A stretch of 62,085 bases of DNA, filler included. It is 9 parts of 9 records of this genome, joined end to end, with 100 filler letters (N's around TTAATTAATTAA, not from the genome) between each part and the next. Parts side by side here need not be neighbours in the genome. Positions count along the whole stretch, not along the records: positions 40,683 to 48,457 come from SRR7504441_2696; 8 more parts are not named here. One strand, given 5' to 3'. The translations under genes and the position numbers were made by a program. The notes under the pieces are model-generated. The model was given only the letters and a program-made list of their open reading frames with translations. It did not search any database and had not been told where the DNA came from. Shown piece by piece: positions 9,218-61,752 of this stretch. The number at the start of each line of letters is the position of its first letter. The first letter of the stretch is position 1.

Positions 9218-9511
9218 GNNNNNNNNNNNNNNNNNNNNNNNNNNNNNNNNNNNNNNNNNNNNTTAATTAATTAANNNNNNNNNNNNNNNNNNNNNNNNNN
9301 NNNNNNNNNNNNNNNNNNGTGAGGCCTTTACGCGATTAAAGTGTCCTGTCGATTCCCAAAAAAAAAACAGCTGAGTCGCTTTGGTCGTTGACAGCTTACG
9401 TTGGTCAATCGAGACAATTTTCCCCGAAGCTTCCTCAAGCTTCCTCGAGCTTAGGAAGCTTCGGAAGCCACGGCGCACCTGTTGGCAGCAAAGGTTGTGG
9501 CCAGCCTGCAA

Positions 9512-10853
9512 ATGAATCCCAAGCCGCCGGCTGAGGCCAACGGACACTCTGAATCAGAGAAGCCGACCTGTGGCGCCGAAGCCGATCCGACCAAACAGGG
9601 CCAGGTGGGATCGCTTTGAAGCCTTTCTCCTCCTGCGTCAGTTACAGTTCACAGGGCTACGATGATAAGGGCTACTGGAATGTGCGGTACGGCGAGTGGG
9701 CCCAGGGGCCGTATGACTGGCTGGTCGAGTACAAAGGCAACCGCAGCAATGCAGTTGGGATGACAGCAACGGCCAGACATTCAGCTCTTTCTGGAGGCCT
9801 TTTTCACAAAGGACATGGCGATTCTGTGCCCGGGCTGCGGCAACGCCCCGCTGCATCCGCACATGTGCGCAGCCGGGTGAAGGCCTTAACCGTAGCTGAC
9901 AGGTACGAGGCCGGGTACACCAGGCAAGTTTGCCTGGATACCTCGCACGTAGTGATTGGTTTGTTTGATTCCTGATCTGTCCGACTAAGTGTGGTGGTGG
10001 CAGAGCAAAGCATCGAGCGGTATCACGAGAGCCACCCGGAGATGATATTCAAGCTCGGAGATGCCACGGCGCTCGACTTACCTGACGAGAGTTTCAGGTG
10101 CGATTTGACTGATGATCAGAGTTTTACGCCAGGCAGTTTCATTCTGGACAAGAGCTTGATTGACACGCTGCGCTGTGAGGCCGGGAGCTACAAGGTAGGT
10201 TGATTTCAGTCGGATTTCCCAAAAATTGGTGCAGGTATGCGAGTTGTTTATCGGCGAGATGTACCGGGTGAAATTTCGATGCATAATTGTGAATCTGGAT
10301 TTATTTTGATCCCATGGCAGGTTTTGCGGACCAACGGAATCTTCATGACGGTCTCGCTCAACACTTACGATGCCGCCGACATCGCCCAGTGACTCACTGC
10401 TTTGCATTAATTGATAGACTTCGGGCACAGGTACTATCAGCGGCCCGAGTGGGCGTGGACGGTGAGCTAGTTGTAAAGTGATTAGAACCGATCGATTGAA
10501 AGGTGGTCTGGGGCCACATCCGGAACCCTCAGTTTGAAAAGGCCAAGGAAAACACCGAATACTACACGATTATTGGTGTGTCAGCGCCCAAATTGATTCC
10601 CAACCGATGGACTGGGCCAGTTGTCTCCAAAGTGCCGGATGACAACCAGCTCCAGGCGACTTTCCCCTGATTAGGAAGGAACTGTCATTGATTCAGTTGA
10701 GACAGCCTTTGATTGATTCTTTGATACGCAAGAGTGAAGCTAGATATGAGTTCACCAACGAGGGCAAGGTGTCCATCGATTTGTAATTGAACTAAGTTAT
10801 TTGGGGATCCGCGATATGACGAATGCTAGGTGATGCTTAGTGGACTCGACTAG
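9512..10853 (+). CDS. Class I SAM methyltransferase, EEF1AKMT4/METTL13-N-like; about 12 exons
   Basis: Splicing 11 introns of about 38-61 nt (two GC-AG, at 9737-9776 and 10656-10696) yields GYDDKGYWNVRY...YDWL...ILCPGCGNA...CLDTS...GDAT...ILDKSLIDTL...EMYRVLRTNGIF. If the 10656 intron is not used, the stop is at 10668-10670. Confidence 0.85.
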
Positions 10854-11561
10854 GATTCGACCTGGTGCTTGACCCGACGAGGTGATTGCAAGCTTTGAAA
10901 AACTTAGTTGGATCATACAATAAGTTGCCGGTGTTGTATTTTAGAGGGTTAATCTGGGTTATCATACGAGTAGGGTGTACATAAGTCATTGGGGTAGAGG
11001 GGGGCACCCGATGTGTGCTTACAGCCAGACATTTAGGCGAAAGGCGATCGCCTCAATGAGCGACCACTAGGAGTTGGTTGGCAACTCACTCATTGAATCC
11101 CTAAACTAACTTACTTTCCATACTACGTATCGGTACCAGTACATGATTGTAACCCATTATTAATTCTTCGGGTTTAAAACCCTTTAGCAGCTAATTTGTA
11201 GCTAATTTGAGCCTTAACCGTACCTTAACCGTACGTCTGATTCAACAATCATCAACTTGCTGGGGATGACCGGATTTTGACCCTGGAACGCCTGGAAGTG
11301 CGCCCCGAAATTAAAGGGGCGCTGTATCCGCAATGAAGTGTAATGTTAGTGCGGGGATGCGTGCGCAAATTTATGTCGACCGAAAAATTAAGAACTTTAC
11401 TAACTTACAAGTGTAACTCATTTTTGTTGAAAATGAACGAGTAACTCGTTTTTGTTAAATACCCGAAGTCTAGGCCCCCCATACCCCTTAACATAGGCTC
11501 ACATGGCCTTCTTCCAAAGTTTGCCGAAAGGATCTGGACAAAATTTCACCGTAGTAGCTTG

Positions 11562-13603: not shown

Positions 13604-13718
13604 GCCACCGCTACCCAANNNNNNNNNNNNNNNNNNNNNNNNNNNNNNNNNNNNNNNNNNNNTTAATTAATTAANNNNNNNNNNNNNNNNNNNNNNNNNN
13701 NNNNNNNNNNNNNNNNNN

Positions 13719-14660: not shown

Positions 14661-15832
14661 TCATGCATGCAGCCCGACATCGGTTAACCTCTGCATGATC
14701 TCGCTGTACACGTCGTTCTCGTTGGCATCAATCCTCTTCTGGTGGCTTTCCCCTAATTCAGCTGCTTGCTGGCCCACACAGCTCAGAGCGGCTCACCAGG
14801 GCTGTTCACCTTCCGCAGCTCCTCCACGATGTACGGGAAGACCTTTTCAGTGATATAATTGATCAATCGGTTTGGGACCAGCTTCAATTTGATATCTAAT
14901 TTGATAATCAAAGTCACTGCCAGACAGCTCAGCGCCCCCGCAGCAGCCAGTGATGGCCAGCGCACCGTGCACCTGATTGTCCCCCACAGGCCTGAGCACA
15001 AAGCCGCCATACTCGCACTCTGCCCTGCAAACAGTGTGTCACCCAACTAGTGTGACAGCAACAGCGACCGTACAAACTTGCCAGTGCTGGCTGCTTCCGG
15101 CAGCTTATCCTGGAGCGCCTCGATCCCCTGCTCGTCCATCGAGCACATCTGCCCACGGTCAGCTCATCCGGCTCTCCGGCTCACCGATATGCATACGCCA
15201 TCTGCATTCACGTCTCCGTACCCTTTAAGCACCAGATCCCGATTGGCCACAGGCCACGGGGAGTAAAACTCGAGATAGACTGCCATCGCGAACTGCGACA
15301 TCTGGGCCACCTGCCCCGGGCTCAGCTGGGGCCTGCTGGGCGGCCGCCTTGATCGATTCCTCGCAGCCGGGCATCCACTCCTTTTGCAGGTCGGCCTCGT
15401 ATAGCAGCGATATCAGGTTGAACAGCGGGGCCTCCACCAGCCCGCTGGCCTTGAAGCTCATCCGGCCGGTCGCCTCGTCCTTCCACCGGCAGGTCTCGAT
15501 CCCCCGCCACTCACTCTGCCCACGGGGCTCGCCCGCTCGCCCTCACCGGCTCGTACCACGAGCTCCCACTTGTCACTGTGCAGCTCCTGAGTCAGATTGG
15601 CCAGCTCGGCCTGCCGCCGACGCACCGCCTCCAGGCTGCTCGCCTGCCCCGGGCTCGCGGGCCGGCACCGTCGGGCGGGCGCCTGCTCTGGGCTGGGAGC
15701 GAGCTGGTGCTGCGCGATGAACTGCTCGAGCTCGCGGAGCCGGTCGATCGAGGCGAAAACCCGGTCCTCGGCAACCAGCTGCTCGATCTCGCCGCATCGC
15801 CGCCCCAGCTCCGCCGCCTCGGGCTCCCCCAT
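14661..15832 (-). CDS. START/Bet v1-like lipid-binding domain protein, multi-exon
   Basis: KWELV|SEWRGIET, SFKASGLVEAPLFNLISLLYEADLQKEWMPGC, YSPWPVANRDLVL, LVPNRLINYITEK. Introns include 15644-15682 (GC), 15516-15556 and 15311-15347 (GC). Confidence 0.75.
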
Positions 15833-25547: not shown

Positions 25548-25648
25548 NNNNNNNNNNNNNNNNNNNNNNNNNNNNNNNNNNNNNNNNNNNNTTAATTAAT
25601 TAANNNNNNNNNNNNNNNNNNNNNNNNNNNNNNNNNNNNNNNNNNNNG

Positions 25649-29574: not shown

Positions 29575-31245
29575 CTATCGCTTGGCAGGTGGCCCCGATG
29601 GCTTGTCTGATTTCGTCACTGAGTCGGCCGGGAACGCCACCAAGGCAAGACCAGACCTGGCTTTAGGCATGGACCGCAACGTGAGCCATCCTTGCTGCGT
29701 CGGAGTCCATCGTTCGAATGTATTCAGAGGCTTGGTTCCGTCCGAGCCTCCACAGACGTAGATGTCGGACCCGTTGGCAATTGCTGCCCCTGCCGAGCGC
29801 CTTGCACCCTGCATTTGGCCGTTGCCTAGCGGCTTCCATCTCCCGTCGCCAAATGAGTGCTGCCTGCCAATCCAACTGCAACCATGCTTTGCAGTGCCTC
29901 TATGCTCTCTCGTGGCCGCAGCCGCAGCACGAGGGTCCGGTTGTCTGGAAGCATCACCGTCACTTGAATCATCCGTGTGGCCTCCGCCTGCGCCCGCCGC
30001 TCCCGACCCAACTGGGCCACGTCCTTGGGCGCCTCAATAAACCGCAGGTGGATCTGCAGGAATCCTGCGTTTAGCCTCCCGTTGATGAGTGAGACAGACA
30101 TTGTTGATCCAGTCAGCCCACTGGTGAGCGCCGACTGCACGGCCGTGTCTAGCTCGACGGTACCCGTGCCTACCACCATGTCGAGCGGGCTGCTCTGCAA
30201 CCCGGTGGACAGCACCCGGATCACAATGCCCTGCTCCTGGTTAGGCCTCGGCCTTCGGAGCTCGAGCGCCAACTGCTGTCCTGTCTTGCCCCACTTTGGA
30301 TTCCCAGTGCGGCAGCGGGCCACCGCAGTTTGCAGCAGCTGATCGCCCAGCTGCACCGTGGCCCGGAGGCACCGCTCCTTCCCGAAGCTCTGCGGCCCAT
30401 AAGCCGGTATATTGTTCCCTTCGAGCACGCTCACCACTAGCTTTCCACGAGCTCCCGCTGCCCTGACCGAGGCCTCGTTCTCCACCCGCCAGCGCTCGAG
30501 CTCCTTGCCGGCCCACCCACGCCCGGCCCAGTCTTTACCGGGCAGCTTGGCGTCATCGGCCACAGTCAATCTGAGCAGCTCATGTCCAATCACTCCGTAG
30601 TCTGCCAACATCGCCTCTGGCTCGAACACAGCTCCAGCCAAGTTGATCAGCTGCAGCCGGGCCGGCACGCCAGTGGCCCGCTCCAGCTCCCGCTGGAAGC
30701 TCCGCACAGACCCTCGCGGGCTTACCGGCACAGTCAGTGTCCGGCCACTGGGGACGGCCACGCGCATGTTGACTGGCCGCGGCCGTGGGACCGGGGCGGG
30801 ACGGGGCATGAACTGGGTGACCAGCTTGGCCCGGGCCTCGACAGCCCCGTTGGGCACGCTGAGCGGCACCCAGCGCTCGATCTTGCTCAGCGAGTCCATC
30901 AGCTCGAGCACACTCATCCGGCCCTGGGCGATAAACTCCTCCGGCCGGCCGTCGGGGGCGTCGTGGACCGAGAGCTGGAGCTCCTGGGCCCCCGAGTCGA
31001 GCTCGAGCACAAACTCGTCCTTGAACACCGCTATCGGGCCGGACGGCTGCTTGGTGCGCGCAGTGACCTGCGGGGCCCGGTCAGTGGCCGCGGACGGAGG
31101 GCGGCGCCTTGCGCTGCTGGCCGAGCTGGAGGATGAGCACAGGTTGGAGTCCGCCGGCCAGCCAACGGTCCGGCAGCCCGCGCAGCTCGCATGCCCGCAC
31201 CACCAGCGTGCCATGCGACTGAGCGACTGCCGTCGGGCTCAGCAT
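29575..31245 (-). CDS. C2 / ubiquitin-like / C2 / partial ubiquitin-like / Kelch-repeat tail; the Ubl-to-Kelch junction is anomalous
   Basis: GTLVVRACELRGL (C2), GC-AG intron 31068-31107, Ubl VAVPSGRTLTVPV...LADYGV, second C2 GKLVVSVLEGNNIP, Ubl start IQVTVMLPDNRTLVL, then Kelch IYVCGGSDG...FERW...W...MPKARSG in another frame. Confidence 0.7.
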
Positions 31246-32245: not shown

Positions 32246-32345
32246 NNNNNNNNNNNNNNNNNNNNNNNNNNNNNNNNNNNNNNNNNNNNTTAATTAATTA
32301 ANNNNNNNNNNNNNNNNNNNNNNNNNNNNNNNNNNNNNNNNNNNN

Positions 32346-36100: not shown

Positions 36101-39100
36101 CCTTGGCCAGCAAACTGTTGCCGTTTGCCGCAGTCTTGACAATTTGGCCAAAGTAATCATAAGCTAGAAAGTAGGCATTGAACCGGATCCCTGGCCTGTA
36201 TACGATCCCATCGGGATCGACATCGGCTACACCGTTGAGACTCGGCTCAGTCATGGCATACATCTGCCTCCTGGACCGTGCAGCTGCTTCGGAAACAGTG
36301 CCCTGCGGCTGACCAACCAGGTCGTCGCCCTCAGGAACTTTGCCGCCCCATTGCCTCGAGTACATGGCTTTCATCTCGTGTGTATCAGTTGCTAGGTCAG
36401 GGCCATACTCAGCCTGGTTGTACCGGAATACACAGTCCTCACAGGAGGCTTCTTTCCGCTGAGCAGCCGTGAATTTTGTCGTATTGCAGTTGGGATAGAT
36501 CACTGAGGGTCTGTCTTCCCACCAGAAGACACAAGCTCCAGCCTGGGCCGTGTTTTCATAGCAGGTCAGTTTCCGAAGCTCAGTCCTTGCGCCGAGCTGC
36601 ACGCTCACACCTCCTCCATAGTCGGTGGCAGTGTTTTGCACGAACGTGGTATCAGACAGGTTTGCAAACCCACGCTTGGCTAAGACCTATAATACAGACC
36701 TCAATCAAACGCCTGGTCAGCTGCTCAGGGCCACCTGTATCGCAGCCCCATTCGTGGCCGTATTGTTGAAGAATGTCCCGCCCACCGCAGCCGTATTATC
36801 GGCATCACGTGCTGAAGGATATCCCACCGGAAAGTTGCAAGTAGCGTCTGTGCAGGTAGTGTCTGAGCTCTCCTCTGTAAGACGAGAACCGTCAAGAGGA
36901 GCCGTTCGAGCGCCAGATCGAGGTGAAATGCCTAGCTCGCTCATCTGAGGTGGTAGCACACCAAGGTACAGCTTTCCTCCTTTGATCAGGAACGCTCCAC
37001 CATCGCTCTCAGCCTTGTTGCTGGAGAAGCGTGAGTTGTAACTGGTGAATTGGTTGCCCTCAAGGAGATAAGCTACCCCTCCGAAGGCAGCACAGTTGTT
37101 CTCGTATGTAGATTGCTCGTCGTACACAACTGCCTTCCCTGACCAGTCCAGATAGTACACTCCGCCCATATACGTTGCAGTATTCCCCTTGAATGTGCAA
37201 TGTGAAACGATTATCAGTGGAGCAGGGCCGCTCATGGAGAAGACCCCACCGCCATTGTACGTGGTCCGATCATGGTTGTCAATGAATGTGCAGCGCACAA
37301 ACTCACCCCTTCCGCCGCGGGAAGCGACAACACCGCCACCTGCCATGGCAAAGATTACTCAGATGCACTGAGTCAAAGACAATCAAGATTTACCGTAAGG
37401 GCCCTGAGGGTCTGGCAGTTCGTTCCCCTGGAAGGTACAATCTTCAAAATATGTACTAGCACCTGCTAGCATGAATAGCACTGGGCCCTCAGGAGCCTGG
37501 TTGTTTATAAACTGAGATCGAAACACTTCCATCATTCCGTCTTCTACAGCGAGAGCACCACCAAAAGCCCCTGACGCCGCGGTCAGCTTCATGTCCCGGA
37601 AGATGCAGTCTTCAATCCGCACATACTTTGAACCTAATTGCATTGCTATTCCACCGCCTTTGGTAATTTCGACCGTTGTGGTGCTGTCCTGGAATGTAGT
37701 GTGCTTGAACAGTGCCCGGGCGCCCGCGTTCACGAGACCAACTGAGGCAGAAACCCCGAGCGTGGTGTTGTAAAAGGTGCTGCTGACCACTGTGGGCTCG
37801 TCCAAGGTCCCAAGGTCAGCAAAAGAAGGGGCTGTGTTCGGAGCGTTGGCATTCAGGTAGGCGCAAGAGGAATCTTGATAGTATTTGAAAGCTGGCGTGC
37901 CAGGCGGTAAACCTAACTGGTCGAGGTAAACCCCCGCACAGAACCCACACATGAGATGAAAGTAACCCAACTCGGGAGGGTTGGTCTGTTGCCCAATCAG
38001 CGGGGCGGGGAAGCCCTGCGGCATGCCGAAGCAGTAGCACGGGACGTCCACACGCCCATTTCCATAGTTCTGTGCGATGTAGGGCTTCGTCCTGCCGTTT
38101 GCATCTCCATGTTGGACACTTGGGCATAGCTTGCTCGGATCCGAGCAAGCCTGCCCAGTGGTTGTTCCACCTCCATGATAACAACCAAGCCCGGGCAGGT
38201 CAGCCACGCACTGGCCCTTTACGGGTGATTCGCTGTACTGGAAACCCCAGTGGGTCTGGGTGTTCTCATTGGCTTGAATGTAAAGGTTGGATCCATAATC
38301 AGCTTTTTGGCCATTAAAGTTGGAGTCTGCAATATAGAGCAGGCTGCCCTGATCCAACACAGCGCCACCTGCCGTCCCTGCGGTGTTCCCAATGAATTCT
38401 GAAGACTCGATTGTGGCAGTAGCGCCTTCGACATTGCCGAAACCGCATTGTTGGCCTGTTCCCAGGTAAATTGCCCCGCCAAAATTTGCGCCCTCGTTTT
38501 GCCGGAAGTGGCAGTTCACTATGGAAGCCTTTTTGTAGGGGTTCCAAGAGGCCGTGTTGCCTAGCAGGTCTCCAATCCTCAGCGCGCCTCCTTTATCCTT
38601 CTGATTTTTACAGAACTCGAAAGTGGTGTCTTCAAGGTGCAGCACTCCTGAACTTTCATAAAACATGCCGCCAGCGTCATGATCAGTTTCGCACTTGCTG
38701 ATCGTCACACCTGTCAGCGTGGCATCGAGCGATTGTGGGACCCCTATGGCCTTGGTGGAGGCGACGGCCATTATGGCGCCGCCCTGTACAGCACACCTGC
38801 ATTCGCTGAATGTCGTGTCCACCATAGTGAAGGTAAGAGACTTGTCCGCATCTGAGTCCGGGATCCAGACCTTCAGCGCGCCTCCGCCACCATGCTCCCC
38901 AGGCGCTCCTCCACCAGTGACCATAGCGGAGGAAGAGCCCAATGATTCACAATGATCAAACTTGCCACCCGAGATTGACAGACTCCCGATCGACCCGAAG
39001 AGCATGCAGCCGCCTCCCATATCTTTGACTTTATCTTCGCGTCCAGTTTCACACCCATCAAACACAACATCCGTGAGCGAGGCTTCACTCGGCTGAGTTG

Positions 39101-40349
39101 TTACCGTATCAGCTCCACTGCCACCCCTGTCGATCAACAAGGTGTCACCATATCGGACACCGACAGCCACCGCGCCTCCTCCCTTTGCAGCCCGGCACGC
39201 TGAAAAGTTTGTCTGTGAAATGGTCAGCTTGGCTCCACTGTCGACATACAGCGCGCCACCCACTGTCGCGTCAATGCGTGCAAACTCGGTGCCGGTGATG
39301 GCTACCTCGTAAGTGCCGGTCATAGATAACTCGCGTGTCCCTGGGTAGATTGATATTGCCCCGCCGTTCACTTCGGTGCCTGTGGAATGCGCGTTTGCGT
39401 TGATGTCCCGCATCTTGCAGTCGGAAATAACAGCCCGGCCCGGGCTCGTAGTTGGCTCATCGTTGCATTTATTGGTCACAGGGTTGCATGTCATGGGGCA
39501 CGTAGTGCCATAATCTGCGCACCACGTGGCCATGGTTACATCCTGTCCTGCTGCTGCCATGGCAAATTCTGCGCATTCTCCACAGTCTCTGTCCTGGCCG
39601 TCAGCGGCGCAGACCCCGGAGACTGGTCCATCGCTCTCGTAGCAGCCCAACTCTTTCGCCCAGCTTTCCAAGAATCCGGTCGGGTCGACGTGCAGGACGG
39701 CCCCTCTATCGCCCGCGATCATGTTGGAGTTCAGGTTTGTGATCTGTCAGCCCAGCTCAGTAGGGCCGGCCGGCCTGGGCACCGTGCACGAGTTGATCGT
39801 CACGAAGTCGGTAACGTCGGCGTACACAAGCGTCGAAGAGGCGCCCTCGTTGTCTACCGACAAGCCTGTCAGCGTGAGCTCTCCTGCCCCGGTGGAGAAA
39901 AAGAGGAAAGTGTCTGTTGCGTTGCTAGCATCGAATCGGACAGTGGGGCTCGTCGCAGCGTCTGCGGTCACTCGCAGCGTCTTGTTGCTGAAGTCGATCG
40001 CCTCGGTCTCCTCGCACACCTGACCGGGGGGGCTCGGCGCCAGCGTCACGTTGATCTCCGCGAGTTCCTTTGCCACGTCATACGCCGCCCCTATGCTCGC
40101 GCACGGTGCGTCCTCCGAGCATACGCCACCGGTCCCATCCACCGCCACGTAGCACTCGCCGTCAGTGGCGCAGCTCCCTGCTCGGCGGGCGGAGGTGGCG
40201 GGCGGAGGCGGGAACGACGTCGACGCCAGATACGACGCCCGGCGGGCGGAGGCGGTACCTTCCAGCCCCTGCTCGGCCGCCGGGGTGGCCAGCTTGCAAG
40301 CCATGGCCGCCAACCACAGCCCCACGACCACTGCTGAACGCCCTGCCAT
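33121..40349 (-). CDS. Giant receptor-like protein: signal peptide, PMP/pectin-lyase beta-helix GGA(I/L/V) repeats, Cys-rich CxxC stalk, ~7-TM domain and C-terminal EF-hand; multi-exon
   Basis: Many F..N.A..GGAI-type repeats, CVWCKSGTYS...CPFNGAC...GYEGPLCAVC, FKILLSYLQV, YDLNCY, YGFLYGRFKPDYW|WYETSELIRK, FDRYDLDESGTINSDEEL. Short introns link ORFs 39747-40349, 37383-39722, 36717-37346, 35424-36641 and downstream pieces. Confidence 0.85.
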
Positions 40350-40409
40350 CGCAGGATCTCTACGACATTTTCTATATATCTGCAGCTGGATTAAGTGCCA
40401 ACGTGCGGC

Positions 40410-40582
40410 ATGAGGGGCCTGGTGGCGGTGGGGACTCTAGTTGCGCTCCTGGCGGTGGGGACGACGGCCCAGGGAGGAGCCCAGGGGCTGGACGCAAGCG
40501 AGGGCGACCCGGTCCCTTGCGCGGACGACGTGGAGGCCGACGCCCTCGAAAGGAAGCTGACCCAAGCCAAAGCTCAGGTGGC
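40410..40582 (+). CDS. N-terminus of a secreted protein, truncated
   Basis: MRGLVAVGTLVALLAVGTTA signal peptide; runs into the spacer. Confidence 0.6.
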
Positions 40583-40682
40583 NNNNNNNNNNNNNNNNNN
40601 NNNNNNNNNNNNNNNNNNNNNNNNNNTTAATTAATTAANNNNNNNNNNNNNNNNNNNNNNNNNNNNNNNNNNNNNNNNNNNN

Positions 40683-41048
40683 GTACCCGCGAACGATTCA
40701 TTGAACGAGGAGTGCAGGGCGAGCACAGTGCTCGTGGCCTCCACGCAGTAATCGTTGATCGCCTCCGCGGTCAAGGCCATCGCCGACTGCCCTCGACGGC
40801 CACCTGCCGGAGTCCAAATCAGCCAAGCTGTGAGATTCGTCGGGTTTGTGGCTGCGAACTACGACTGCGAGCATGGGAAAGGCCCGAGCCAACTCTGCGC
40901 TGCCGTGCTTCCAGTCGGCCACAGCCCCAGAACGGGGCCAGGCGCAGCGGAAGCGTGGTGTGCCACACACGTAACAGATGCTCCCGCCACGGGACCTCGC
41001 TCTTGCTACGAATAGCAAGCCTCCGAGGAGGGCGCGAGAAGCGGGCAT
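40683..41048 (-). CDS. Possible N-terminus of a secreted hypothetical protein, truncated
   Basis: MPASRALLGGLLFVA plus a downstream frame that is open to the contig edge. Exon structure unresolved. Confidence 0.3.
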
Positions 41049-41503
41049 CCTGACTAATGTGTGGGAGCGGGGGGGGGTACGGGTGATCACCTGGCTGCTG
41101 GCCCCCAAGCACACGCCGGGATCGGGTCACCTGCGCCCGGCACAATTACGGGGGCGGGCCTGTATACAGAGGCGGGCTGGGCAAGTGGGCAAGGCCTCAG
41201 CGATCTTGGTGATTAACTGTCGTCACGCGAATAGATAGTTCGTCGAGAGTAGCAAATATAGTTTCACATCCCAGGCCGGGGGGGAGGGGGGCGCTGGCCG
41301 ATGTTGTTACCGCGTGTCGCCGCTTGTGGCCCAGGTACTCACCGAGGCTCAGCACCAGCTTGGGCTCGCAGTTGGCGACCCGCTCAAACCGCTCCACTTC
41401 CAGCTCGAACTTGCCCCCTTGCAGGTACTCCGGGCACGCTCGATGAAAGCTCGCTCGATGAGTATTCCGTTGGAGACCGTTATATAACGTCAGGAGATTT
41501 CAC

Positions 41504-43018
41504 ATGTCTGCAGCAGGCATGTCGGCGGGCTCCAGGAGCGCGTTTGGCACCGGACACGGCGCCGCTGGGCCCAAGAGCAGCACTGCATTCGAGCCCACGT
41601 TGAGCTGGGTGGGGTCCGGGTTCATGATCATGGGAATGATCATGGGGATCGGCCTGCTCGGCTTGCCGTACAACTTCAGCCAAGTGGGATGGATCCCGGG
41701 CCTGATCTCGCTCACCGTAGGCGCGCTCTCGGCAACGTACTCGGGGCTGCTCATCAAAGCCACATGGTTCAAAGCGATGGAGCTCGGCTTCGCGCTCGAC
41801 GACATCGACCAGGAAAGCGACGGCAACGAGACGCCCCGCGGGACCGACCTCGAGATGACCGGCTCAGCCAAGCACAGGAGAAGCACACGGAAGCACACCC
41901 GCTCGCTGCTGCGAGGGTCACTGCTCAGTGTGGTGCAAGAGGAGGAGTCGGAGAGGAGCTCGGGCAAGATCCGGCCGGCCTCGTTCGCAGACCTTGGCGC
42001 CTGTGCGTATGGCGAACGCGGCCGTCAGTTTGCAATCGTCTTCTCCCAATGCCTGGTGTTCCTGGCCCTGGCGGCGTTCCAGATGACTGCGGGCGAGTGC
42101 CTGCAGCAGGCGGTGCTGGATTCATCGCCTAGTTTGGAACCGCACCAATTCTGCCTGTGGATTGCCTCGCTGATAGCGGTCGGGATTGTGCTCCCGATCG
42201 CCCAAGTCAGGGTTCTCGGATCTCTCGGGTGGGTCACAATCGTGGGCGTCACGTCGGTGGCCGTGCCCATCATGATCGTGTTTATTCAAATCATTGAGAA
42301 CCCAGAGTACGACGGGGACGATAACCTCTTCACACTGGGACACGGCGAAAACAAGGGATGGAGCAGCCTGCTTGCCAATCTCATCGGAGGTGTTGCGTTC
42401 GCCTTCGCGGGGCAGGTACTCTTCCCTGAGTTCATGCATGAGATGAAGAAGCCCGAAGACTTTCACTTGGCAGTCTACTTTTCGTCCATTGTGATGTATG
42501 CATCCTACCTGCTCGTGGCGTGTATGGGTTACGCCTATCTTGGCAATTCAGTCTCATCTCCGATAACCACCGATCTTGTCCCAGCTGCCAAATCGGTGGT
42601 TGCTCAAATCGTGCTGCTCTTCCACGTGCTGGTCGCCTTCTCGCTGAATGCGCACGCGTTCAACTCATTTGTCTTCTCAAGAGTTTATCCGGATCGTATT
42701 GAGGACTTCAGCTGGGGGAGTACAATGAGATGGTTCGTGATTACGCTTTGCACTTGTACTGTTGCCTACATCATAGCGGAGAGTATTCCATCTTTTGGGA
42801 CATTTGTCGGCCTGATTGGGTGCACAATAGGGGTGGGAATCACTTATACGATGCCATCATTCTTCTACCTCAAGATATGCAAGCCTGAAGGGCGCGATTA
42901 CTACCTCGTTTGGGCTTTCAACATTCTAGGTATGGTTCTGTCGGTTGCTGGAACCGTCGGCAGTGCCGACCAGCTTTGGCGCGAATTTACCCAAAACAAA
43001 CCCTTCTCGTGTGGTTAG
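41504..43018 (+). CDS. Amino acid/auxin permease (AAAP, Aa_trans) family transporter
   Basis: MGIGLLGLPYNFSQVGWIPG, SFADLGACAYG, FAFAGQVLFPEFMHEMKKPEDF, IPSFGTFVGLIG. About 11 TM segments; no introns. Confidence 0.93.
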   Translation: MSAAGMSAGSRSAFGTGHGAAGPKSSTAFEPTLSWVGSGFMIMGMIMGIGLLGLPYNFSQVGWIPGLISLTVGALSATYSGLLIKATWFKAMELGFALDDIDQESDGNETPRGTDLEMTGSAKHRRSTRKHTRSLLRGSLLSVVQEEESERSSGKIRPASFADLGACAYGERGRQFAIVFSQCLVFLALAAFQMTAGECLQQAVLDSSPSLEPHQFCLWIASLIAVGIVLPIAQVRVLGSLGWVTIVGVTSVAVPIMIVFIQIIENPEYDGDDNLFTLGHGENKGWSSLLANLIGGVAFAFAGQVLFPEFMHEMKKPEDFHLAVYFSSIVMYASYLLVACMGYAYLGNSVSSPITTDLVPAAKSVVAQIVLLFHVLVAFSLNAHAFNSFVFSRVYPDRIEDFSWGSTMRWFVITLCTCTVAYIIAESIPSFGTFVGLIGCTIGVGITYTMPSFFYLKICKPEGRDYYLVWAFNILGMVLSVAGTVGSADQLWREFTQNKPFSCG

Positions 43019-43343
43019 TCGTGGTAGTGCTCCTGAAGAGTTATGTATGTACCCTACGACACCTACTGAAATGGGAGTGCGAGTGCTTTGCATGATTGTC
43101 AAGGTAATGATTGATTGTTGTCTTTGTGACGTAAAATCGAATAAATTTATGACAATCATGACTAAATCATGACATAATGATAATTATGAGTACTCGTACA
43201 TAATCATTGTAAACCCTAGTGAACCCCAGTGAGTCAGTACAGTGTCATGTACTGTACTTAATTAAGCGCTAGAATAAAAGTTCTGCGTATTAACTGAATC
43301 TCCGAAATTAGATCAGGCAGATTAACTGGGTCCAGAGTGTCAT

Positions 43344-45926
43344 TTAGTCGGCCGATCCGCCTGTCTGCCGCTTTAGCTTGCGTCGTCGGACCTCGTCCTC
43401 TATCAGGGCCTTGTGCGCTTGCTCGATCTGAGCCTGCACCGCAGCCAGCTCCTCCTGCAACTCACTGTTCTCGCGCTTGGCCACATCCAGCGTCTGCCCA
43501 GCCCGCTGAGCAGGCGCTATGATCAGCGCTGTGCCTGGTTGTGCAAGTTGAGTTCGCGCTTCTTGTCGAGCCGCTGCCTGTGCAGCGCAGCCTTGTCTTG
43601 CTTGAGTAACTCCAACGCACCAGCCCCTGCCCCCAGCCTCGGCCCCATTCTCGCCTCCCTGCACCCTTGGCGTCGCGCTCGCGGACCAACGAGTCGCACG
43701 TGAGCAGCTTCCGAGCCATCAACTCGAACTTGGCGCTCAGGGCCTCGACCACAGCACACACCTCCATCTGGGCAAGGTCACCAGTCTGCAGGTGTCTAGC
43801 GATACGGCGCTGCAGCTGGTCCATGAACGCCGTGTCGGCTTGCTCGAGCGCCTGTCACTAGCTGGCCACTATCAGCAGGCGCGCGTGCCTGGCCTAGTTG
43901 AGCCAGCCGCTCTTGAGTCCGGCCGATTGCTTTCTCCACCTGGGGGCCCGAGCTGAGCGGGCACACAGCACGCATGCACCATCTGCTCCTCCCACGAGAT
44001 CCCCTGCAGCCCAGTCACAGTGAACTGACCGCCGCTCCTCTGCGTGTGGAAATAGGCGTGCCTGCCCCGGCTTGCCGTGCCCAGCCGAGCCGGCCACATT
44101 AGCTGTTTCCAGAACTCACGCTCGCTGACCGCTGCACTCTGGATGATAATCTCGAACTTGGCCTCGAGCTTGTCGATCTGGTCCGAGAGCAGCTGCTTGA
44201 TCTGGGCTCGCTTGACTTGCTCCTGGTGGATCAGCTCGCCCCCGCCGCCCGGCTCCTGCTCCAGCGTTGCCTCCAGTTGCTTCCACTCGTCCACCACCTG
44301 CCTCGCTCTCAGCCCCACCACTCAGCACGCCAGCACCTGGTGAGAGTCGATCGCTGCCGTGCACTCAGCGATCGCCTCCGCCCAAGCCTTGGCGTCCGCC
44401 GCTGTCGGAGCAGTCAGCGTGACGTCGACAGGGTCTGCCAGCTCTGTCTGCGGCCGGGATAGCCGCACTGTGTCTGCGCCGTGTTCGACCGCGACCACCA
44501 ATCCAGAGAGCATCACGTGCTGTTCATACTGCACCCCCTTGCGGGTATGCGCGGCCAGGATCAGCACCAAATCGAACAAGTATCCGTACAACGGCAGCAC
44601 TGGCCCGCGCCGCCAGCTGCAATCGACCGGGCCCTCCCGCACGAATTCAATCCCAACCGCAGGCACCGCATCCGGCAGCTCCATCCACCGGAGCAGCCCG
44701 TCCGTTTGCTCGGCCTTCAACCGGTCCTTCTCGGCCGCCTCGACGTAGTCTGCCGCGAGCGTCACAGCCGCGAGCAGTTGGTCTGTCTGGTGCAGCCTGT
44801 GCGCCGGCTCACTCGGCTCGGTGGTGAGGGTCCACTGAAGGATAAACAACTGCATCTTAGCCAAGTGCTCCCCGGGCGCAGCCAGCAGGTCCTCCAGCCC
44901 GAGCAGCCCGGCGCAGCTCGGCCGGGCAGCCAGCTCGTTCGCCAGCACTGCCGGGTGGCTCGGCTTGACATCCAGCAAGCTCTCGAGGCCCCTCCAGCCC
45001 GCGCCGGCGTCGCCCGCCCCCCCGACCCGGCCGGTCTGGCCCACGAGCTTGGCCACTCCGTGCGTAACGGCATAACGCAGCTGCGGATCGGCGGCCAGGC
45101 TTGCGTTCAGCAGCGCGAGCACCCCACCCAGGCTGGAGGCCCACTCCTCGTGCAGCTGGAGCCCTGTCACCGCCCAGCCCTCGAGAGCCCCCGACAGCTC
45201 AGGATCAGGCCACCGGGCGGCGCTGGCCTCGAGCACGCGCTTGAGCAGCTCGAGGTGCAGTTCGAGCATCGGCTCGAATCTGCCGAAGAGCGTCTCAAAG
45301 TCTGCATCCGACATCGCCAGCGCGCCGGCCGACCTTGCCTGCCTCAGCGGGACGGTGTACGCCTGCACGGCCGCGTTGAGCCGGACCACCAGGCTCTTCT
45401 GCGCCCGGATGAACTTGCGGATCGCCCTGGCCCTCAGCTGGAGCCGGGGCTGTGTGAGGTACCGACGGGTGGACCCGCCGGCCGGGGCCTCGGACGCCCG
45501 CCATAGCTGATACTTGTGCTTGATCAGAGTCCCAGCCCACTCCTGCTCAGCGCTGAGCGGCAGGCAGGCCGGGTCGGCTGGCTGGGCTGGCCGCGGCCGG
45601 TCGAGTCGGGAGCGGACCCGGACCCGGGCGTGCTCGCCCCCAATGTGTGCTTGGAGCATCTGGAGCCGGTTGCGCATCGAGGCCGTCATGCTCTGGATCG
45701 ATGCCCGGGACTGGCCATCCAGCTGCAGGCTGCTGGCCAGCTTCCGGAACAGAGCCCCATACGGGTCCGGGCCGGCCCGGAGCTGCCGGCTTGGCCCAGC
45801 CCGGCGCACCTCGGCGTACGCATTGCTCGCCAGCTTGGTGTCGAAGGCGTGCTGGGGCAGCGCCGGGATCCGTTGGCCGAGCAGCTTCTCGGCCGGCGTG
45901 CGCTCCCGCATGCTGCTGCGCTGCAT
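43344..45926 (-). CDS. Divergent RhoGEF (DH-PH) protein with a C-terminal coiled coil, multi-exon
   Basis: RARAIRKFIRAQKSLVVRL...YTVPL...FETLFGRFEPMLELH, LEDLLAAPGEHLAK, PH-like FVREG...YGYLFDLVLILA...TAADAKAWAEAI. Downstream coiled-coil exons. Start and end are approximate. Confidence 0.7.
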
Positions 45927-46026
45927 CGCGTGGTCACTGGCTCACTGGTGGCTCGGGCCCCACAACTCGGGCTGAATCATCATTGAGTTCATCCTGGTGA
46001 ATCTTCCGTTATTTCTCAACGGCAAA

Positions 46027-48457
46027 ATGTTCGCCGCCCCGGCTGGGAGTCTCTGGTGTTGAGTGCCGCGCGGCAGGTCGTTGGGGGCGGCGGAGGAAGG
46101 GGCATACTACGCAAAGAGCTTCGCCTCGGAGAACTGCCCGTTCTCCCGCGACCCGGGTCCGTTCCCCGGCCGGTCGCCGAGTCGGCTGCCGCCTGGGCTG
46201 GCCCGGCTGTGTCGGAGGCTGCGGCCGGCGGTCTTGCTGGGCCGGAGCTGGCGGGCGGGCGGCAGCGGCTGAGGCTGGGGTCAGGCGACAGCAACAACTA
46301 CGATTCGTTCGACTACGACGCCTACGAGTCGCAGGCACCGGGCTGGGGCGCAGCCGGGCTGACCGCCGCTGCAGCAATGGCTGAGCTATCAGCTGGAGAT
46401 GAGCGAGAAAAAGAGCTTCCAGGCGCCCCCCGGTGTGAGTGGCGCTGAGGCTGGACCAGACCGACGCGCTGCGCTGGGTGATGTTGCTTGCGATCGGGTT
46501 CTGCACTGGGTGAGCGCCGGGCCGACTGGCGGGCGACTGGCCGGGCAGCTGCACCGGGTTTTTCATCGACGCCGTGGTCAAGTAGCGGCTGGGCGGGGTC
46601 TGGGCGAGCGGGCGGCAGGTACATCGTCAAGCTCAAGTTTTGGGTGATTGACGAGATCTTCAACCAAACCGACACAGATGGAGGCCGGAGCAACATCACG
46701 CTCGCACTCCCGGCCTGGCTGGGCATGGAACTGGTCGACCGCCGTCCCTGCCAGCAGCCAGCCGGGGGCGCAGGCGCTCTGCGCAGTGGCCGGGTACTTG
46801 GTTTGTTTCGTGGAGAGCTGTGCAGCTGGGTCTGGGATTCCGGAGATCAAGGCACGCTCAGCGAGCGGCTGGCGGCCGACTGGGCTGGCAGTGCCGACTG
46901 AATGGGATCAGAATGGTCCGAGTGCTCAGGATCAAGACCTACTTCACCAAGGCCGCCGCCCGCCCCTGGGCTGACTGAGCCAGCCTGCAGGTGTTCGGAG
47001 TGCTCTTCTCTGTGGCTGGCGGTGGGCCACGCAGCGGAGGGTGGCGATGAGGGGTGTGCAGGGCTGCCGGTGGGCAAAGAAGGCCCGATGATCCACTCGG
47101 GCGCGATCGTCGGCTCCGGGATCAACCAGATGAAGTCAAAGTCATGGTGAGGGCACCGGCCAGAGGCTGGTCTCAGCCCGTGCAGGGGCATCGACTGCCT
47201 CAGGCAGAGAGCCTACTCCAAAATGGCCACGTTCCGTAACGACATTGACAAGCGCGACATGATCGCCGCCGGGGCCTCGGCCGGGGTGGCAGCCGCTTTC
47301 GGGGCGCCCATTGGAGGAGTGCTGTTTGCGCTGGAGGAAGGATGCTCGTTTTGGAATGTGAAAATTACTTGGGGCAACTTCTTTGCGGCGATGATCTCGA
47401 CCACGGCCATCAACTTATTTAGCACCGGGATCAACACGGACGTCCCGTTCGGGCTGCTCACTGCCCCTGGGATGGTGACGTTTGGCCGGTTCGCGTCGAC
47501 TCAGGCCACCGCGTTCAATGTCTGGGAGATCCCTTACTTTATTGTAATCGGGTGCGGCGGCGGGCTGCTGGGAGCGCTGTTCAACCACCTGAACACGATC
47601 TTCACCAAGTGGCGGCTGCGACGGGTCAACTCGTACCCTTGGCGCAGATTCGGAGAAGTGATGGTGGTTGCGCTGGTGGTGGCACTGTTTGCTCTGTTTT
47701 TCCCATACGTGGCTGATGACTGCACCTTGATAGCCAATCCGCTCAACTCCCGAGCCAACAACGTCACAGATCTGACTAATCACAAGGCGTGCTTTGAAGA
47801 TGACTGCAGCTGCTCCGCTGAGCTGAGGTCAGCGCTGATTGGTCAGTCGTCCGAAGACGAGTGGGAGTACGACTGCTACTTTGACCCGGAGCTCAAGGAA
47901 AGCATGGTCCAGTTCGCCTGCCCTAACCACTACTACTCTCCAGCCGCCTCGCTCGCGTTTGCCAAGGGCGACGTCGTGATCAAAGGCCTGCTGCACAATC
48001 CTGAGAAGTATCCGATGGGGATGCTCTTTGCCTTCTTTGCCTTCTACTTCATGCTCGCCTGCTGGACCTACGGGATCGGCGTGCCCTCGGGGCTGTTCGT
48101 GCCCTCACTGATCACGGGTGCTGCGTACGGGCGCTTTGTGGGCCAAGCTCTAGATGACGCTGGTGGGTTGCTCAGGGGCTGGCTGACCACCAAGGGCAGG
48201 CATGTTGGATGGGATCCATACCTATGCCGTGGCGGGCAAGATCGGGGTGTATGCTCTGGTTGGCGCTTCGGCAATGCTCGCCGGGATGGCACGGATCACA
48301 ATCTCATTAACTGTCATTCTAATCGAGTGCACTAACGACGTGCAGTGAGCGCAGCCTGGCTGCTCTGCCCGCCAGCCCCGGCTGGCAGGTATGCGCTGCC
48401 GATCATGCTGTGTGTCATGTTTGCCAAGTGGGTGGCCGATCTATTCAACCACGGGCT
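46027..48457 (+). CDS. CLC chloride channel/antiporter (CLC-6/7-like), about 14 exons, 3' truncated
   Basis: [71 protein letters not shown]. At least four GC-AG introns. Confidence 0.93.
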
Positions 48458-48557
48458 NNNNNNNNNNNNNNNNNNNNNNNNNNNNNNNNNNNNNNNNNNN
48501 NTTAATTAATTAANNNNNNNNNNNNNNNNNNNNNNNNNNNNNNNNNNNNNNNNNNNN

Positions 48558-49082: not shown

Positions 49083-51760
49083 TCAAATCCTGTCGTCCTG
49101 CGACACTGGACTATGAGGGCTATAATCGTCGTCTGTGTAGTCCACATCTGGGTCGTCACCCATATCTCCCAGCCCCGGTTCGTCGCCGCTGAACATTTGC
49201 ATCAGCCCGTCCTCCACAAAATTGGTTGAAGTCACCAGATGCGTACCACCGATGTAGATATCAATCTGCCCCGTCTCAGTGCGAGTGCTAGCCGGCCACT
49301 AACTACCTGCCACTTGGCCATGAGCTCGTACACGGCCTGGATCTCAGCGTGCGAGATCCCGCCCTGGACGAAGATCACTAACGGCCCGTTCTTCTCGTCC
49401 GTTTTCTTGCGCCGGAACCAGGAAGGCTTGCGGGACCCGCCCCTGCCCGGCCACTCAGCCAGCTCCGTGGATCGGTTTACTTTGGATAATCTCCTCTAAA
49501 TCCGTCAATAAACGGGCAGTCCTCTTCACCCATCCCGCCTGCCCGCCCTCGCCTGCCTCCTACCGCCGCCGAGCACCTTGCAGCACCGCGTCAGCTATAC
49601 GATAAATCCGGGGCACAAAAGAATTAAAGCTCTGCGCCTGGTGCAGAAAATCGTCCCTGCCCGCCCTCAGCGCTCCCCACCCCGGGGGGCTACTTGGCGT
49701 CCGCCCGCGCGTCGGCGGCTTCCCCGGACTGGTCCAGGCCCTCTGTATTGGGGTCTAGGTACTCTGGCACCACCATCCCGGCCGGGTCCGCCATTAGCTC
49801 AGCGAACATTGGATCGTGCAGCGCCAGGTGCAGCGCAAGCTCCCGAGCGGGCGGGGTCAGGTTGGAGGCCTGGGTCGGGCTCCACTCGGCGTGGTGGACC
49901 TCCTTGAGAGCGTACCAGCCAGTCAAGTAGTCCACTCCTAGTGGCTCGCTCTCTACCAACTGGCGGACAGTCTCGTCCAAGTCGCCTTGCACCATCAGCG
50001 CATACAGCAGGAACATTCGGTGGCGCATGCACTCGGTGTAGTTCGGGTCGTTGAGCATCAGCATCAGCTGGTCTTTGGCCTGCACCTTCTGCAACTCCTC
50101 CCGCGTGTGCAAGGTGTATTCCTTCTGGCCCATAGCCACCGCCTGCTGAAACTGGAGCATCGCAGCCCTTTGGTCGATCCGTTCCATCCGGCGCTCGCCA
50201 TCCTCCTCGGGCGGGCCGAGCACGATCGAGTAGAGCATCTCCTTCACCTTGCTCAGCGTACGGACTGATTCGTTGTACGAGTGAAGCTCACGTATCCCGG
50301 CCTTACGGATCTGTTTCTGAGCCGGTGTCAGGTTCTTCATGTCCACTCGCTTCTCGGGGTCCGAGTCCCACTCGACCAGCGTGGCGGCTGGCCCCAACAG
50401 TTAGTGCACCCGCCGGCCAACTGTTGTAATCACCGGAGGGGAAGCGCTTCTTGATCCAAGTCCGGAGCTTTTTGCAGATTTCGGAGAAATTCTTGCCAGA
50501 AATCGACTGGAATCTGAGCTGCTGCCAAACCTTGTTCGTCTCGTTGAGCGTGATCATCTTCGGGTTGCCGATCGGCTCGTCCTTGCCGTCCAGCGTGCTG
50601 CACAGGCAGGCGCCAAAGTTCTGCTCATTAACAATGTCGATCTCAAACCTCTCTGATAGCGCCTGAACCCCTGTCAGTCAGCACCGAGAGCCGGCAGCCC
50701 GCCTGCGAGCGCGGGTGGTCCATCAGCACGGCGCCCACATTGTAGTGATCCAGCAGTACGGTCTGTAAGTCGAACGACCGGTCGAGCACCAGTACAGTGG
50801 CGGTCCCACTCTCTGGCTTGTTTGCCCACCGTGAAGTCGCCTGCAGCTGCCGACCGAGCGCCGCCGCCAGCTCCCGCGCCACGTCGCACTCGTCGGTGTG
50901 GGCCGCCCCCTGCGGTGAGTTGCCCTTGACCCACCGCAGTGTCTTGGGGAGCATTGGTTTCCAGTCCTTGACCGCAGCAGGATCCTCCGGGAACCCCAGC
51001 GAGAGCAGCACCGATGAAAGCCCGGTGGCCGCAGCTTGCCTGGCGTTCTGACCGTTCTGGCCCACCGGGGCGTACAAGTCTGGAAGCACCGTGCTCGGGG
51101 AGAAGTCACATGAGCTGAGCACGAAAGCGTGAGCGTCCACCGGAGCGAACGCGAGGTTGAGTTCTGCGCAGCTGGCGATCCGCTGAGCGACCGGGAGGCC
51201 GGCCAGATGGCGCAGGGTGGCCTCCGAGACCGGGCTGGTGAACAGCAGGTGCACCTTGGAGTAGAATGGCTGCTCCGGGTCCGCAAAGTCGGCCAGCAGG
51301 ATCTCTATCTCTTCGGGCTCGGGCTGGATCAAGTAGATGGCCTCCAGCCCGGGGAAAGGCTTGCGCCCGGACTTTGTGATCTTGCTGTCCGGCGGGATCT
51401 CCTCCGGCCGCCGCTCGACCACCAGCGGCTCGACGTGCGAGATTTGGTGCTTGGTCAGCTCGTTGGTAGTACTCACAGCCGAGATGACCCGCACCGCGAA
51501 CTGTGCCCGGGGGTGGGCCGGGCCCGGGGAGAGGGGGGGCACCTCGTCCACCACCAGCACGCACCACCTCTGGTCAGGATTCTCGCCATCGGCCGCCCCG
51601 GTGATGTCGTCGATCGCTCTGAGCAGCCGCCTGCCGCCCGGCTAGCTGGCGGCCCAGGGGAGGGCCGGCACCGTTCTGTGATCGACCGGAGCGATGTGGG
51701 CAGGAACGCCCGCCGCCCCTCCCCTGGCGCCCCACCGCTCTCGTCCTTGCCCCGCCCCAT
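49083..51760 (-). CDS. Sec1/Munc18 (SM) family protein, multi-exon
   Basis: RWCVLVVDE|FAVRVISAV, RKPFPGLEAIYLIQP, VLVLDRSFDLQTVLLDHY, VWQQLRFQ, LVIFVQGGISHAEIQAVY, IYIGGTHLVT. Confidence 0.88.
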
Positions 51761-58851: not shown

Positions 58852-59140
58852 NNNNNNNNNNNNNNNNNNNNNNNNNNNNNNNNNNNNNNNNNNNNTTAAT
58901 TAATTAANNNNNNNNNNNNNNNNNNNNNNNNNNNNNNNNNNNNNNNNNNNNGGTGAGGCGTGCTGGGACGCGACCGGCACGCTGTGGCGGCAGCGCAAGA
59001 ATGCGGCTTGCAAGCCAGCTTCTCCATCACTTTACCATCACTTCATCAAGAACAAGAGCCACTGTAGACAATACCAGTGTGCCAGCTGAACACTTGCTGT
59101 CATATTGGATCATGGCTCGGCCGCGTCTGCGCCTCCAGAC

Positions 59141-61035: not shown

Positions 61036-61752
61036 ATGCCGGGTGAGAGTCCAGGTGAGAGCTGCTGCTTGTCCCCAGGTGAGCCGATCTGGGGACAGTC
61101 CGCCAGTCCAAGATGCTGCACAACATCTACGCCGAGCGCTTGGCCACCGCACCGGTCGGCCCGCTCTTCTACGCCCCCCGCGCCTACGTCGCCGACATGC
61201 CGCGCGCCCAGGCCTCGTAGCTCCCCCCGCCCGCGAGCCCCGGCACCAGTCTGGGCCTGCAGGGCCACCTCGCTCCGGCACCGGCCGCCGTACGAGGCCC
61301 GCGAGATAATCGCGGCCCACCAGGGCGCGGTGCGGCCGTCTGCGCGGGCTCGGCCAAACTTTGGGGGCAGCTGGCGCCTCCGATCTCGGTGGCAAACAAC
61401 TTGCCGCCGGCGCACGCGGTGCACGACCTGATCCACAAGTACAACGAGTTCAACTACGCCCGGCCCTTCTCTTCGGCTGAGATGGTCCAAATGCCCCAGC
61501 CGAACAGGCAGCCGACCAATCACCCCGGGCCGAGCCGTTGGGGCAGGGCTTATACCCAGAGCTCCGGAGCCCCAATGGCGGGCGGGTCCTCAGCGATGGG
61601 TGGCGTGGACCCGGCTGGCCGGCCGCTGACTCGGCTGCCGGAGGTGGGCCGGGGGGCGGGGCTGGGGCGAGCAAGGGCAGGGTTATTATGACTCTGTGGG
61701 GAGACCGTTCCTCAAGCCTTACAGCGAAAAGAGCGGACTGGTCTCCTCGTAG
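61036..61752 (+). CDS. Hypothetical Pro/Tyr-rich protein, about 6 exons
   Basis: Five 37-46-nt introns (one GC-AG) give a continuous frame MPGESP|VRQSKMLHNIYAER...HKYNEFNYARPF...GYYDSVGRPFLKPYSEKSGLVSS*. Confidence 0.55.

Follow-up and report, generated by a model that had tools for sequence, protein, structure and literature searches.

Short, tract-free introns with frequent GC donors after exon-end AG in a GC-rich stretch of DNA

Introns that begin with GC and end with AG (GC-AG introns) are rare in the best-known genomes and common in a few algae. In the accessible text of the survey by Iwata and Gotoh (2011), they amount to about 1% of introns in mammals and plants, and the usual rate is 1.3% (PMC3033335). 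The same text reports shares of 39.6% in Aureococcus anophagefferens, 22.2% in Micromonas pusilla and 7.7% in a Chlorella, ties them to genomic GC content, finds canonical U1 5′ ends and calls the origin of these introns an "enigma" (PMC3033335). A 2024 preprint, in the sections available, puts the share at 14-17% in A. anophagefferens strains and at ~14% in Pelagomonas calceolata, and the mean intron size at 103-177 bp (bioRxiv 10.1101/2024.10.30.620910). For Emiliania huxleyi, whose genome is 65% GC, the excerpted text of Feldmesser et al. (2014) counts 241 curated junctions, of which 56% are GC-AG and nine GC ones were confirmed by reverse transcription polymerase chain reaction, with a canonical acceptor and with the high GC content credited by the authors (PMC4028052). 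At the other end of the intron, constrained 3′ structures have been described in protists (Irimia and Roy 2008; PMC2483917), and human short introns use SPF45 instead of U2AF (PMC8363638), as far as the available portions of these papers go. Here we examine the introns of a 62,085-base stretch of DNA (the window), above all those of a CLC chloride channel/exchanger gene on its contig 40683-48457, and find that introns of about 40 nucleotides (nt) begin with GC far more often than 1% of the time. An earlier, sequence-only reading of this DNA had flagged such donors and described GC-AG introns as about 1% elsewhere and raised in a few algal groups, which agrees with PMC3033335, 10.1101/2024.10.30.620910 and PMC4028052 as far as their accessible texts reach.

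The window is made of nine contigs of 3-12 kb strung together by eight N44-TTAATTAATTAA-N44 linkers; because the contigs are separate, genes that flank a linker are not necessarily genomic neighbours. Four genes were examined (the CLC gene, a Sec1-family gene, a methyltransferase gene and a START-like lipid-transfer gene), and 39 introns were placed in total. At each junction all combinations of donor and acceptor were tried with no dinucleotide preference, and the spliced translation was scored, after tblastn alignment, against relatives that were mostly transcript-derived. These were P0001 (74% identical), P0002 (70%) and the metagenome contig L001 (74%) for CLC; P0121 (55%) and P0122 (45%), the two matches at E <= 1e-10, for the Sec1-family gene; P0123-P0125 (51-56%), the three matches among 71 candidates, for the methyltransferase; and P0126, P0127, P0128, P0132 and P0135 for the START-like gene, the five used of 13 matches, the 8 weaker ones being dropped. 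Spliced translations align over the junctions with each of these relatives.

Repeats at the two flanks allow an intron to slide, so that usually 3-6 shifted cuts tied for the best score; we called a junction firm when this tie set held one GT-AG or GC-AG cut. By this definition 27 of the 39 junctions were firm, 20 of them GT-AG and 7 GC-AG. The chosen cut was the sole AG-ending member of the top tie set at 26 of the 27; the exception was 10656, where a CC-AG cut tied. For the remaining 12 junctions, which lie in variable protein regions, the best GT-AG or GC-AG cut was taken, 1-29 below the top score. The CLC gene, with four of the seven firm GC-AG introns, was resolved as follows.

46027..48457, plus strand: CLC chloride channel/exchanger gene, truncated at the contig end; four of its 13 introns GC-AG; large exon with a Pfam Voltage_CLC match
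46029..46076, plus strand: GT-AG intron, 48 nt, probable; start codon split after AT; alternative 21-nt GT-AG at 46056-46076
46157..46284, plus strand: GT-AG intron, 128 nt, probable, a length outlier; best GT-AG cut, 3 below the top non-canonical cut
46335..46374, plus strand: GC-AG intron, 40 nt, firm; after exon-end CAG; sole AG-ending cut among 5 top ties
46423..46459, plus strand: GC-AG intron, 37 nt, firm; after exon-end CAG; sole AG-ending cut among 5 top ties
46510..46548, plus strand: GT-AG intron, 39 nt, firm
46582..46618, plus strand: GT-AG intron, 37 nt, firm
46734..46773, plus strand: GT-AG intron, 40 nt, firm
46852..46891, plus strand: GC-AG intron, 40 nt, firm; after exon-end AAG (EIK); sole AG-ending top tie; best GT-AG cut 132 lower
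46952..46990, plus strand: GC-AG intron, 39 nt, firm; after exon-end AAG (FTK); sole AG-ending top tie; best GT-AG cut 157 lower
47022..47061, plus strand: GT-AG intron, 40 nt, firm
47147..47185, plus strand: GT-AG intron, 39 nt, firm
48163..48199, plus strand: GT-AG intron, 37 nt, probable; 3 below top, with a 25-nt GC-AG cut 4 below top
48345..48388, plus strand: GT-AG intron, 44 nt, firm

Apart from the introns of 48 and 128 nt, CLC introns measure 37-44 nt. Reading through 46952-46990 runs into a stop, and the 46335 junction has no in-frame GT donor that gives an open frame. At 46435, 12 nt downstream of the 46423 donor, an in-frame GTGAGT would define a 25-nt intron and add four residues that are absent from P0002 and L001. 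The 46029-46076 cut makes the CLC protein start exactly as in those same two relatives. L001 was the single locus recovered when metagenomes were scanned with the CLC exon, and this 74% relative is intron-free. No close named algal relative of the CLC protein stands among the 120 matches listed, of which the best are transcripts.

Intron positions, lengths, dinucleotides and motif statistics are direct observations on the placed introns. Lengths had been put mostly at 37-50 nt, and 35 of the 39 fall there, with a median of 40 nt; 37 of the 39 lie within 36-53 nt, which leaves two outliers of 64 and 128 nt, and the length classes modulo 3 are even (11/14/14). The donors comprise 30 GT and 9 GC, 7 of the latter firm. 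Ten GC donors had been flagged. Seven are firm (46335, 46423, 46852, 46952, 9737, 15347 and 10656) 15682 is plausible only, and 31107 and ~61508 stay candidates; at 10656 the donor stands and the acceptor is 10705, for an intron of 50 nt. The claim that GC donors nearly all follow exonic AG proved accurate without exception: exon-end AG precedes 9/9 GC donors versus 7/30 GT donors (Fisher p = 5e-5), or 7/7 versus 5/20 at firm junctions (p = 9e-4), and position -3 is A or C at all nine. Put the other way, GC makes up 9 of the 16 donors that follow exon-end AG and 0 of the 23 that follow other exon ends.

The rest of the donor is weak. Positions +3 to +6, described as near random, do carry no more than 0.1-0.25 bit each, but among GT donors G occupies +3 in 19/30, +5 in 18/30 and -1 in 23/30; over +3 to +8 their positions hold 0.01-0.25 bit each, and about 2 bits in total lie outside the GT. 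GC donors differ in having C at +5 in 7/9, versus 5/30 for GT donors (p = 0.0014), and C at +6 in 7/9; none of the nine carries AAGT at +3 to +6.

Acceptors have C at -3 in 37/39 introns and G at +1 in 23/39. Their G-rich ends were noted in the earlier reading and are borne out by G at -4, -5 and -6 in 25, 26 and 23 of 39. So is the lack of a polypyrimidine tract: pyrimidines make up a share of 0.43 over -23 to -4, and 38/39 introns have no pyrimidine run longer than 6 in their last 30 nt. The CTGAC/CTGAG-like element reported close upstream of the 3′ end is likewise enriched. A branch-like [TC]GA[CG] with its A at 8-18 nt from the 3′ end occurs in 22/39 introns, peaking at 10-14 nt, versus 106/398 controls (27%) drawn from the sequence that precedes CAG within long exons; CTGAG alone is 8.6-fold enriched (8/39 versus 9/398). 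The other 17 introns have looser branch variants, judged by eye only. Taken together, the earlier observation is confirmed, and the sequence-level parts of its interpretation (narrow length, exon-end AG, weak donor, no tract, branch motif) hold, so that the interpretation is partly supported.

We consider it likely, from the sequence features above, that the introns are of the ordinary U2-type spliceosomal kind, in a GC-rich protist with short introns, and that GC donors are tolerated after exon-end AG. Such introns would be recognised across the intron through several weak signals acting jointly: a narrow length of ~40 nt, an exonic G followed by GY, a CAG end without a tract and, 10-14 nt before that end, a branch site of CTGA[C/G]/YTRAY type. 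Their 3′ half looks like the short-intron architecture of fungi and protists, in which a near branch site and a CAG leave neither space nor need for a tract. GC-biased base change would convert GT to GC. A C at +2 would cost one U1 pair and be tolerated only where exon-end (C/A)AG supplies pairing, so only donors with full exon-end pairing would survive the change; +2 would thus be a nearly free pyrimidine after exon-end AG and stay T elsewhere. The intron C/(C+T) share, 0.29/(0.29+0.17) or ~0.63, is close to the 9/16 of GC after exon-end AG, and this closeness, with 0/23 otherwise, would fit a +2 position that is nearly neutral in the one setting and constrained in the other under GC-biased change. 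Pairing compensation, the mutational origin of the GC donors and low reliance on U2AF65 are what we infer from these patterns. The minor, U12-type class of introns is marked by an [AG]TATCC donor and a TCCTTAAC-like branch site; none of the 39 introns has the [AG]TATCC donor.

The earlier reading had gone further, proposing that the splicing machinery itself is changed, with U1/U6 donor pairing relaxed or lost, U2AF65 dispensable and introns measured by length plus exonic AG. The near-empty +3 to +8 positions of GT donors, the C in place of G at +5 in most GC donors, the missing pyrimidine tract and the very narrow length range would all fit such a change. We nevertheless regard it as unlikely, since GT donors keep their preference for G at -1, +3 and +5, the GC class depends on a complete (C/A)AG exon end, which is U1's pairing partner, and the U1 5′ end is reported as canonical, in the accessible text, for two algae with equally high GC-AG shares (PMC3033335). 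That GC donors follow (C/A)AG so strictly suggests that the exon-end contacts of an ordinary U1 (and U5) compensate for the mismatch, not that pairing is lost. The canonical U1 5′ end is ACUUACCUG and the canonical U6 box is ACAGAGA. A bolder proposal would see in the same features a distinct intron code. In it, +2 would be a free pyrimidine after (C/A)AG; the GC class, (C/A)AG followed by GC-R-N-C-C, would have almost no intronic U1/U6 pairing; the G-rich introns would be GC-richer than exons; and the 3′ site would lie at a fixed 10-14 nt from a CTGA[C/G] branch without tract binding of the U2AF65 type, the whole amounting to a compact, length-measured, tract-free regime with changed early recognition factors. 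We give this proposal a slim chance.

Base composition raises another question. Introns are GC-richer and G-richer than exons (67.7% versus 59.3% GC; G 39%). In three of the genes the introns, at 73-77% GC, far exceed their exons (77% versus 58% in CLC), the reverse of the usual contrast. Methyltransferase introns, at 48% GC versus 73-77% elsewhere, suggest that the contigs may not all share one genome. The window could then mix contigs of more than one related organism, for example from a binned metagenome, and the regime described here would be a blend of GC-rich and AT-richer introns. Its make-up of nine linker-joined contigs and a GC content that ranges from 48% to 68% per 2 kb around a mean of 58.7% would suit such a mixture. 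Against this, lengths of 36-53 nt, CAG ends and GC donors after AG are common to all four genes, and GC content varies within single contigs: the large CLC exon (47190-48160) is far less GC-rich than the intron-rich 5′ part of the same gene (46027-47190). We therefore hold a mixture to be rather improbable.

Short G-rich introns might also stem from a mobile intron family, as copies of introner-like elements. Stretches of 20 nt recur between some pairs, such as the introns at 46510 and 46852, and the two algae in which high GC-AG shares were first noticed are also the classic introner hosts. However, all-against-all similarity among the 39 introns is near that of composition-matched shuffles (mean best-partner score 12.2 versus 10.7; best pair 17 versus a shuffle maximum of 20). 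Known introners are several times longer than the introns here. With intron-to-intron similarity about that of shuffled controls, we discarded this reading as very improbable.

The other genes that contributed introns or candidates are set out below.

9512..10780, plus strand: methyltransferase gene; 11 introns, 2 of them GC-AG
9605-9654, 9865-9902, 9959-10003, 10098-10136, 10195-10234, 10268-10320, 10389-10430, 10462-10502, 10576-10620, plus strand: methyltransferase GT-AG introns
9737..9776, plus strand: GC-AG intron, 40 nt, firm; after exon-end AAG; sole AG-ending top tie; best GT-AG cut 76 lower
10656..10705, plus strand: GC-AG intron, 50 nt, firm; after exon-end CAG; in the top tie with CC-AG cut 10652-10701
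14664..15832, minus strand: START-like lipid-transfer gene; 7 introns, including GT-AG introns 15556-15516, 15184-15149, 15068-15025, 14965-14917 and 14809-14769
15311..15347, minus strand: GC-AG intron, 37 nt, firm; after exon-end AAG; sole AG-ending top tie; best GT-AG cut 171 lower
15644..15682, minus strand: candidate GC-AG intron, 39 nt, ambiguous; in frame, no stop; score 216 versus 182 for read-through and 245 for the best non-canonical cut
49140..51751, minus strand: Sec1-family gene (Pfam Sec1); 8 introns, 4 firm GT-AG, 2 probable GT-AG, 1 probably GC-AG and 1 ambiguous
51671-51631, 51542-51501 (in frame, within a long open reading frame), 50433-50388, 49576-49539, 49480-49443, 49306-49266, minus strand: Sec1 GT-AG introns
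49729-49666 (GT) or 49739-49673 (GC), minus strand: Sec1 ambiguous intron
50663..50702, minus strand: Sec1 probable GC-AG intron, 40 nt, ambiguous; after exon-end CAG; the alternative 50710-50671 is likewise GC-AG and 40 nt
31068..31107, minus strand: candidate GC-AG intron, 40 nt; after exon-end AAG in a C2-domain gene; joins two frames past a stop; a 28-nt GT-AG intron is also in frame
61508..61546, plus strand: candidate GC-AG intron, 39 nt, from the sequence-only reading; sequence only
39782-39744, 37393-37358, 36734-36687, 18431-18493, 44336-44298: extra GT-AG candidates from joining open reading frames without homology, uncounted
55441-55375: doubtful 67-nt GC candidate from joining open reading frames, uncounted

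Removing 10656-10705 takes out an apparent stop at 10668, and the next exon matches the conserved C-termini of P0124 and P0125. At the Sec1 junction near 50702 the GC-AG cuts lie 13 and 16 below the top and the GT-AG cuts (34 and 22 nt) 30 and 31 below. The exon downstream of the 31107 candidate gives a weak Pfam C2 match; the exons around 61508 matched no Pfam family, and no relative was found for them. Joining of open reading frames (ORFs) is informative only where the frames barely overlap. An ab initio parser that combined a periodic Markov coding model with GT-AG and GC-AG jumps missed the homology-proven CLC structure and used GC donors freely, and was discarded as evidence. Four introns, 51501-51542 (minus strand), 10576-10620 (plus), 10098-10136 (plus) and 15644-15682 (minus), are in frame and stop-free inside long ORFs and would pass as coding insertions.

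Could the GC donors be artefacts of gene modelling, with nearby GT donors used instead, the segments kept, or the genes being pseudogenes? In-frame GT alternatives do exist at 46435 (25 nt), in the 31095 region (28 nt) and at 50684 (34 or 22 nt), but at 22-34 nt they are shorter than every firm intron (>=36 nt). At six of the seven firm GC introns the best GT-AG cut trails by 37-171 in score; at the seventh (46423-46459), the GT alternative adds the four residues missing from two relatives. Retaining any of the seven would cause a frameshift or a stop: they measure 40 nt (46335, 46852 and 9737), 37 nt (46423 and 15347), 39 nt (46952, which contains a stop) and 50 nt (10656, which also contains one). 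The frames downstream remain open and conserved. All seven must thus come out for the conserved frame, which argues that they are real introns, and we judge the artefact explanation extremely improbable.

How common the GC class is in this organism is a separate matter. GC-AG introns are 7/27 of the firm set and 9/39 in all, figures that come from 62 kb of 58.7% GC DNA with three of the four genes picked on flagged GC donors. At a 1.3% rate, the chance of seven GC-AG introns is p = 7e-7 among 39 introns and p = 9e-5 among a generous 80 for the window. With flagged GC donors guiding that choice, the share is probably too high, and the Sec1-family gene together with the five ORF-joining candidates holds at most 1-2 GC among 13. 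From these counts, a GC-AG share of roughly 10-25%, far above 1%, seems a fair statement.

Several observations weigh against the view that these are ordinary U2-type introns with GC donors tolerated after exon-end AG. The placements rest on proteins 45-74% identical from transcript collections and not on the organism's own transcripts, and 12 of the 39 are probable or ambiguous, below firm. The Sec1-family gene, chosen blind while the other three were picked for flagged GC donors, has 0 GC among its 4 firm junctions and 1-2 ambiguous ones among 8, and the GC count does not rise with the five GT-AG candidates that ORF joining supplies. Introns on the methyltransferase contig, at 48% GC, are AT-richer than those of the other three genes (73-77%) and than the exons there (55%), so that the contigs may come from more than one genome. 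The GC donors lack mammal-type intronic compensation (no AAGT; C at +5 in 7/9), so that U1 pairing would rest on only about four positions. Lastly, a search of the 62-kb window with Rfam at gathering thresholds found no small nuclear RNA genes, U1 and U6 included; its sole match was a SNORD24-like RNA.

The wider content of the window includes the following features.

5495-5594, 9219-9318, 13619-13718, 25548-25647, 32246-32345, 40583-40682, 48458-48557, 58852-58951: linkers, with stops in all six frames
41193-41277, minus strand: SNORD24-like C/D-box small nucleolar RNA, 56.4 bits versus a gathering score of 41; adjoins an amino-acid transporter gene, upstream of it
35427-40436, minus strand: very large gene with right-handed beta-helix / PMP-like repeats, in at least 4 long ORFs

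The beta-helix / PMP-like ORFs are probably joined by GT-AG introns of 36-48 nt. Genes with a single long exon are frequent in the window (RPE65-like, lactonase, PhyH, Myb, ankyrin/MSP and amino-acid transporter, by Pfam), and other "single-exon" genes may hold more hidden in-frame introns. A Pfam search of 103 short ORFs of contig 9319-13618 gave no useful match. One aquatic metagenome contains 14% of the window's words. Three DNA runs yielded nothing beyond short, low-depth contigs of a strain ~98% identical; those of one aquatic metagenome run match contig 40683-48457 over 48104-48454 and in pieces of 41219-45783. The ~98% identical contig over 48104-48454 keeps both GT introns in its DNA; the usable pieces leave the GC donors uncovered. 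A close strain is thus present, either in a separate data set or in the sample from which this DNA came.

These findings have a practical side, as gene finders tuned to GT donors, pyrimidine tracts and AT-rich introns will get this organism's gene models wrong. The window also provides a clean, small data set on why GC-rich protists tolerate GC donors at tens of percent, and the all-or-none tie to exon-end AG suggests a simple rule in which +2 is free only when the exon end pairs.

Abundant GC-AG introns have been published for Aureococcus, Micromonas pusilla, Pelagomonas and E. huxleyi, so the core phenomenon is already known. A word search of open-access full text returned no matching description of a 40-nt, GC-AG-rich regime in protists. 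Like Aureococcus, Micromonas and Pelagomonas, as described in the accessible texts, the window combines GC-rich DNA and GC-AG introns with retained AG acceptors, GC-AG there reaching tens of percent. Its median intron of 40 nt sets it apart from the pelagophytes and their means of 103-177 bp, and the available portions of the reports on the three genera make no mention of an exon-end AG rule. With E. huxleyi, judging from the excerpted paper, it probably shares GC donors as a major class, and it shares a canonical acceptor, the GC share being higher in E. huxleyi. In mammals and plants, GC-AG introns have a compensating donor consensus, exon-end AG followed by GCAAGT. The introns here resemble those in being U2-type and in the exon-end AG (9/9), and differ from them in an intronic part without compensation and in a sampled share of ~20% versus ~1%. 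Compared with the short introns of protists and humans, as far as the sources on them extend, they have the same short distance from branch to 3′ site, the same weak or absent tract and, probably, recognition across the intron, but they are G-rich and GC-richer than exons. What sets this window apart is its 40-nt class, introns GC-richer than exons, GC donors without intronic compensation, and transcripts as the closest relatives in the protein collections.

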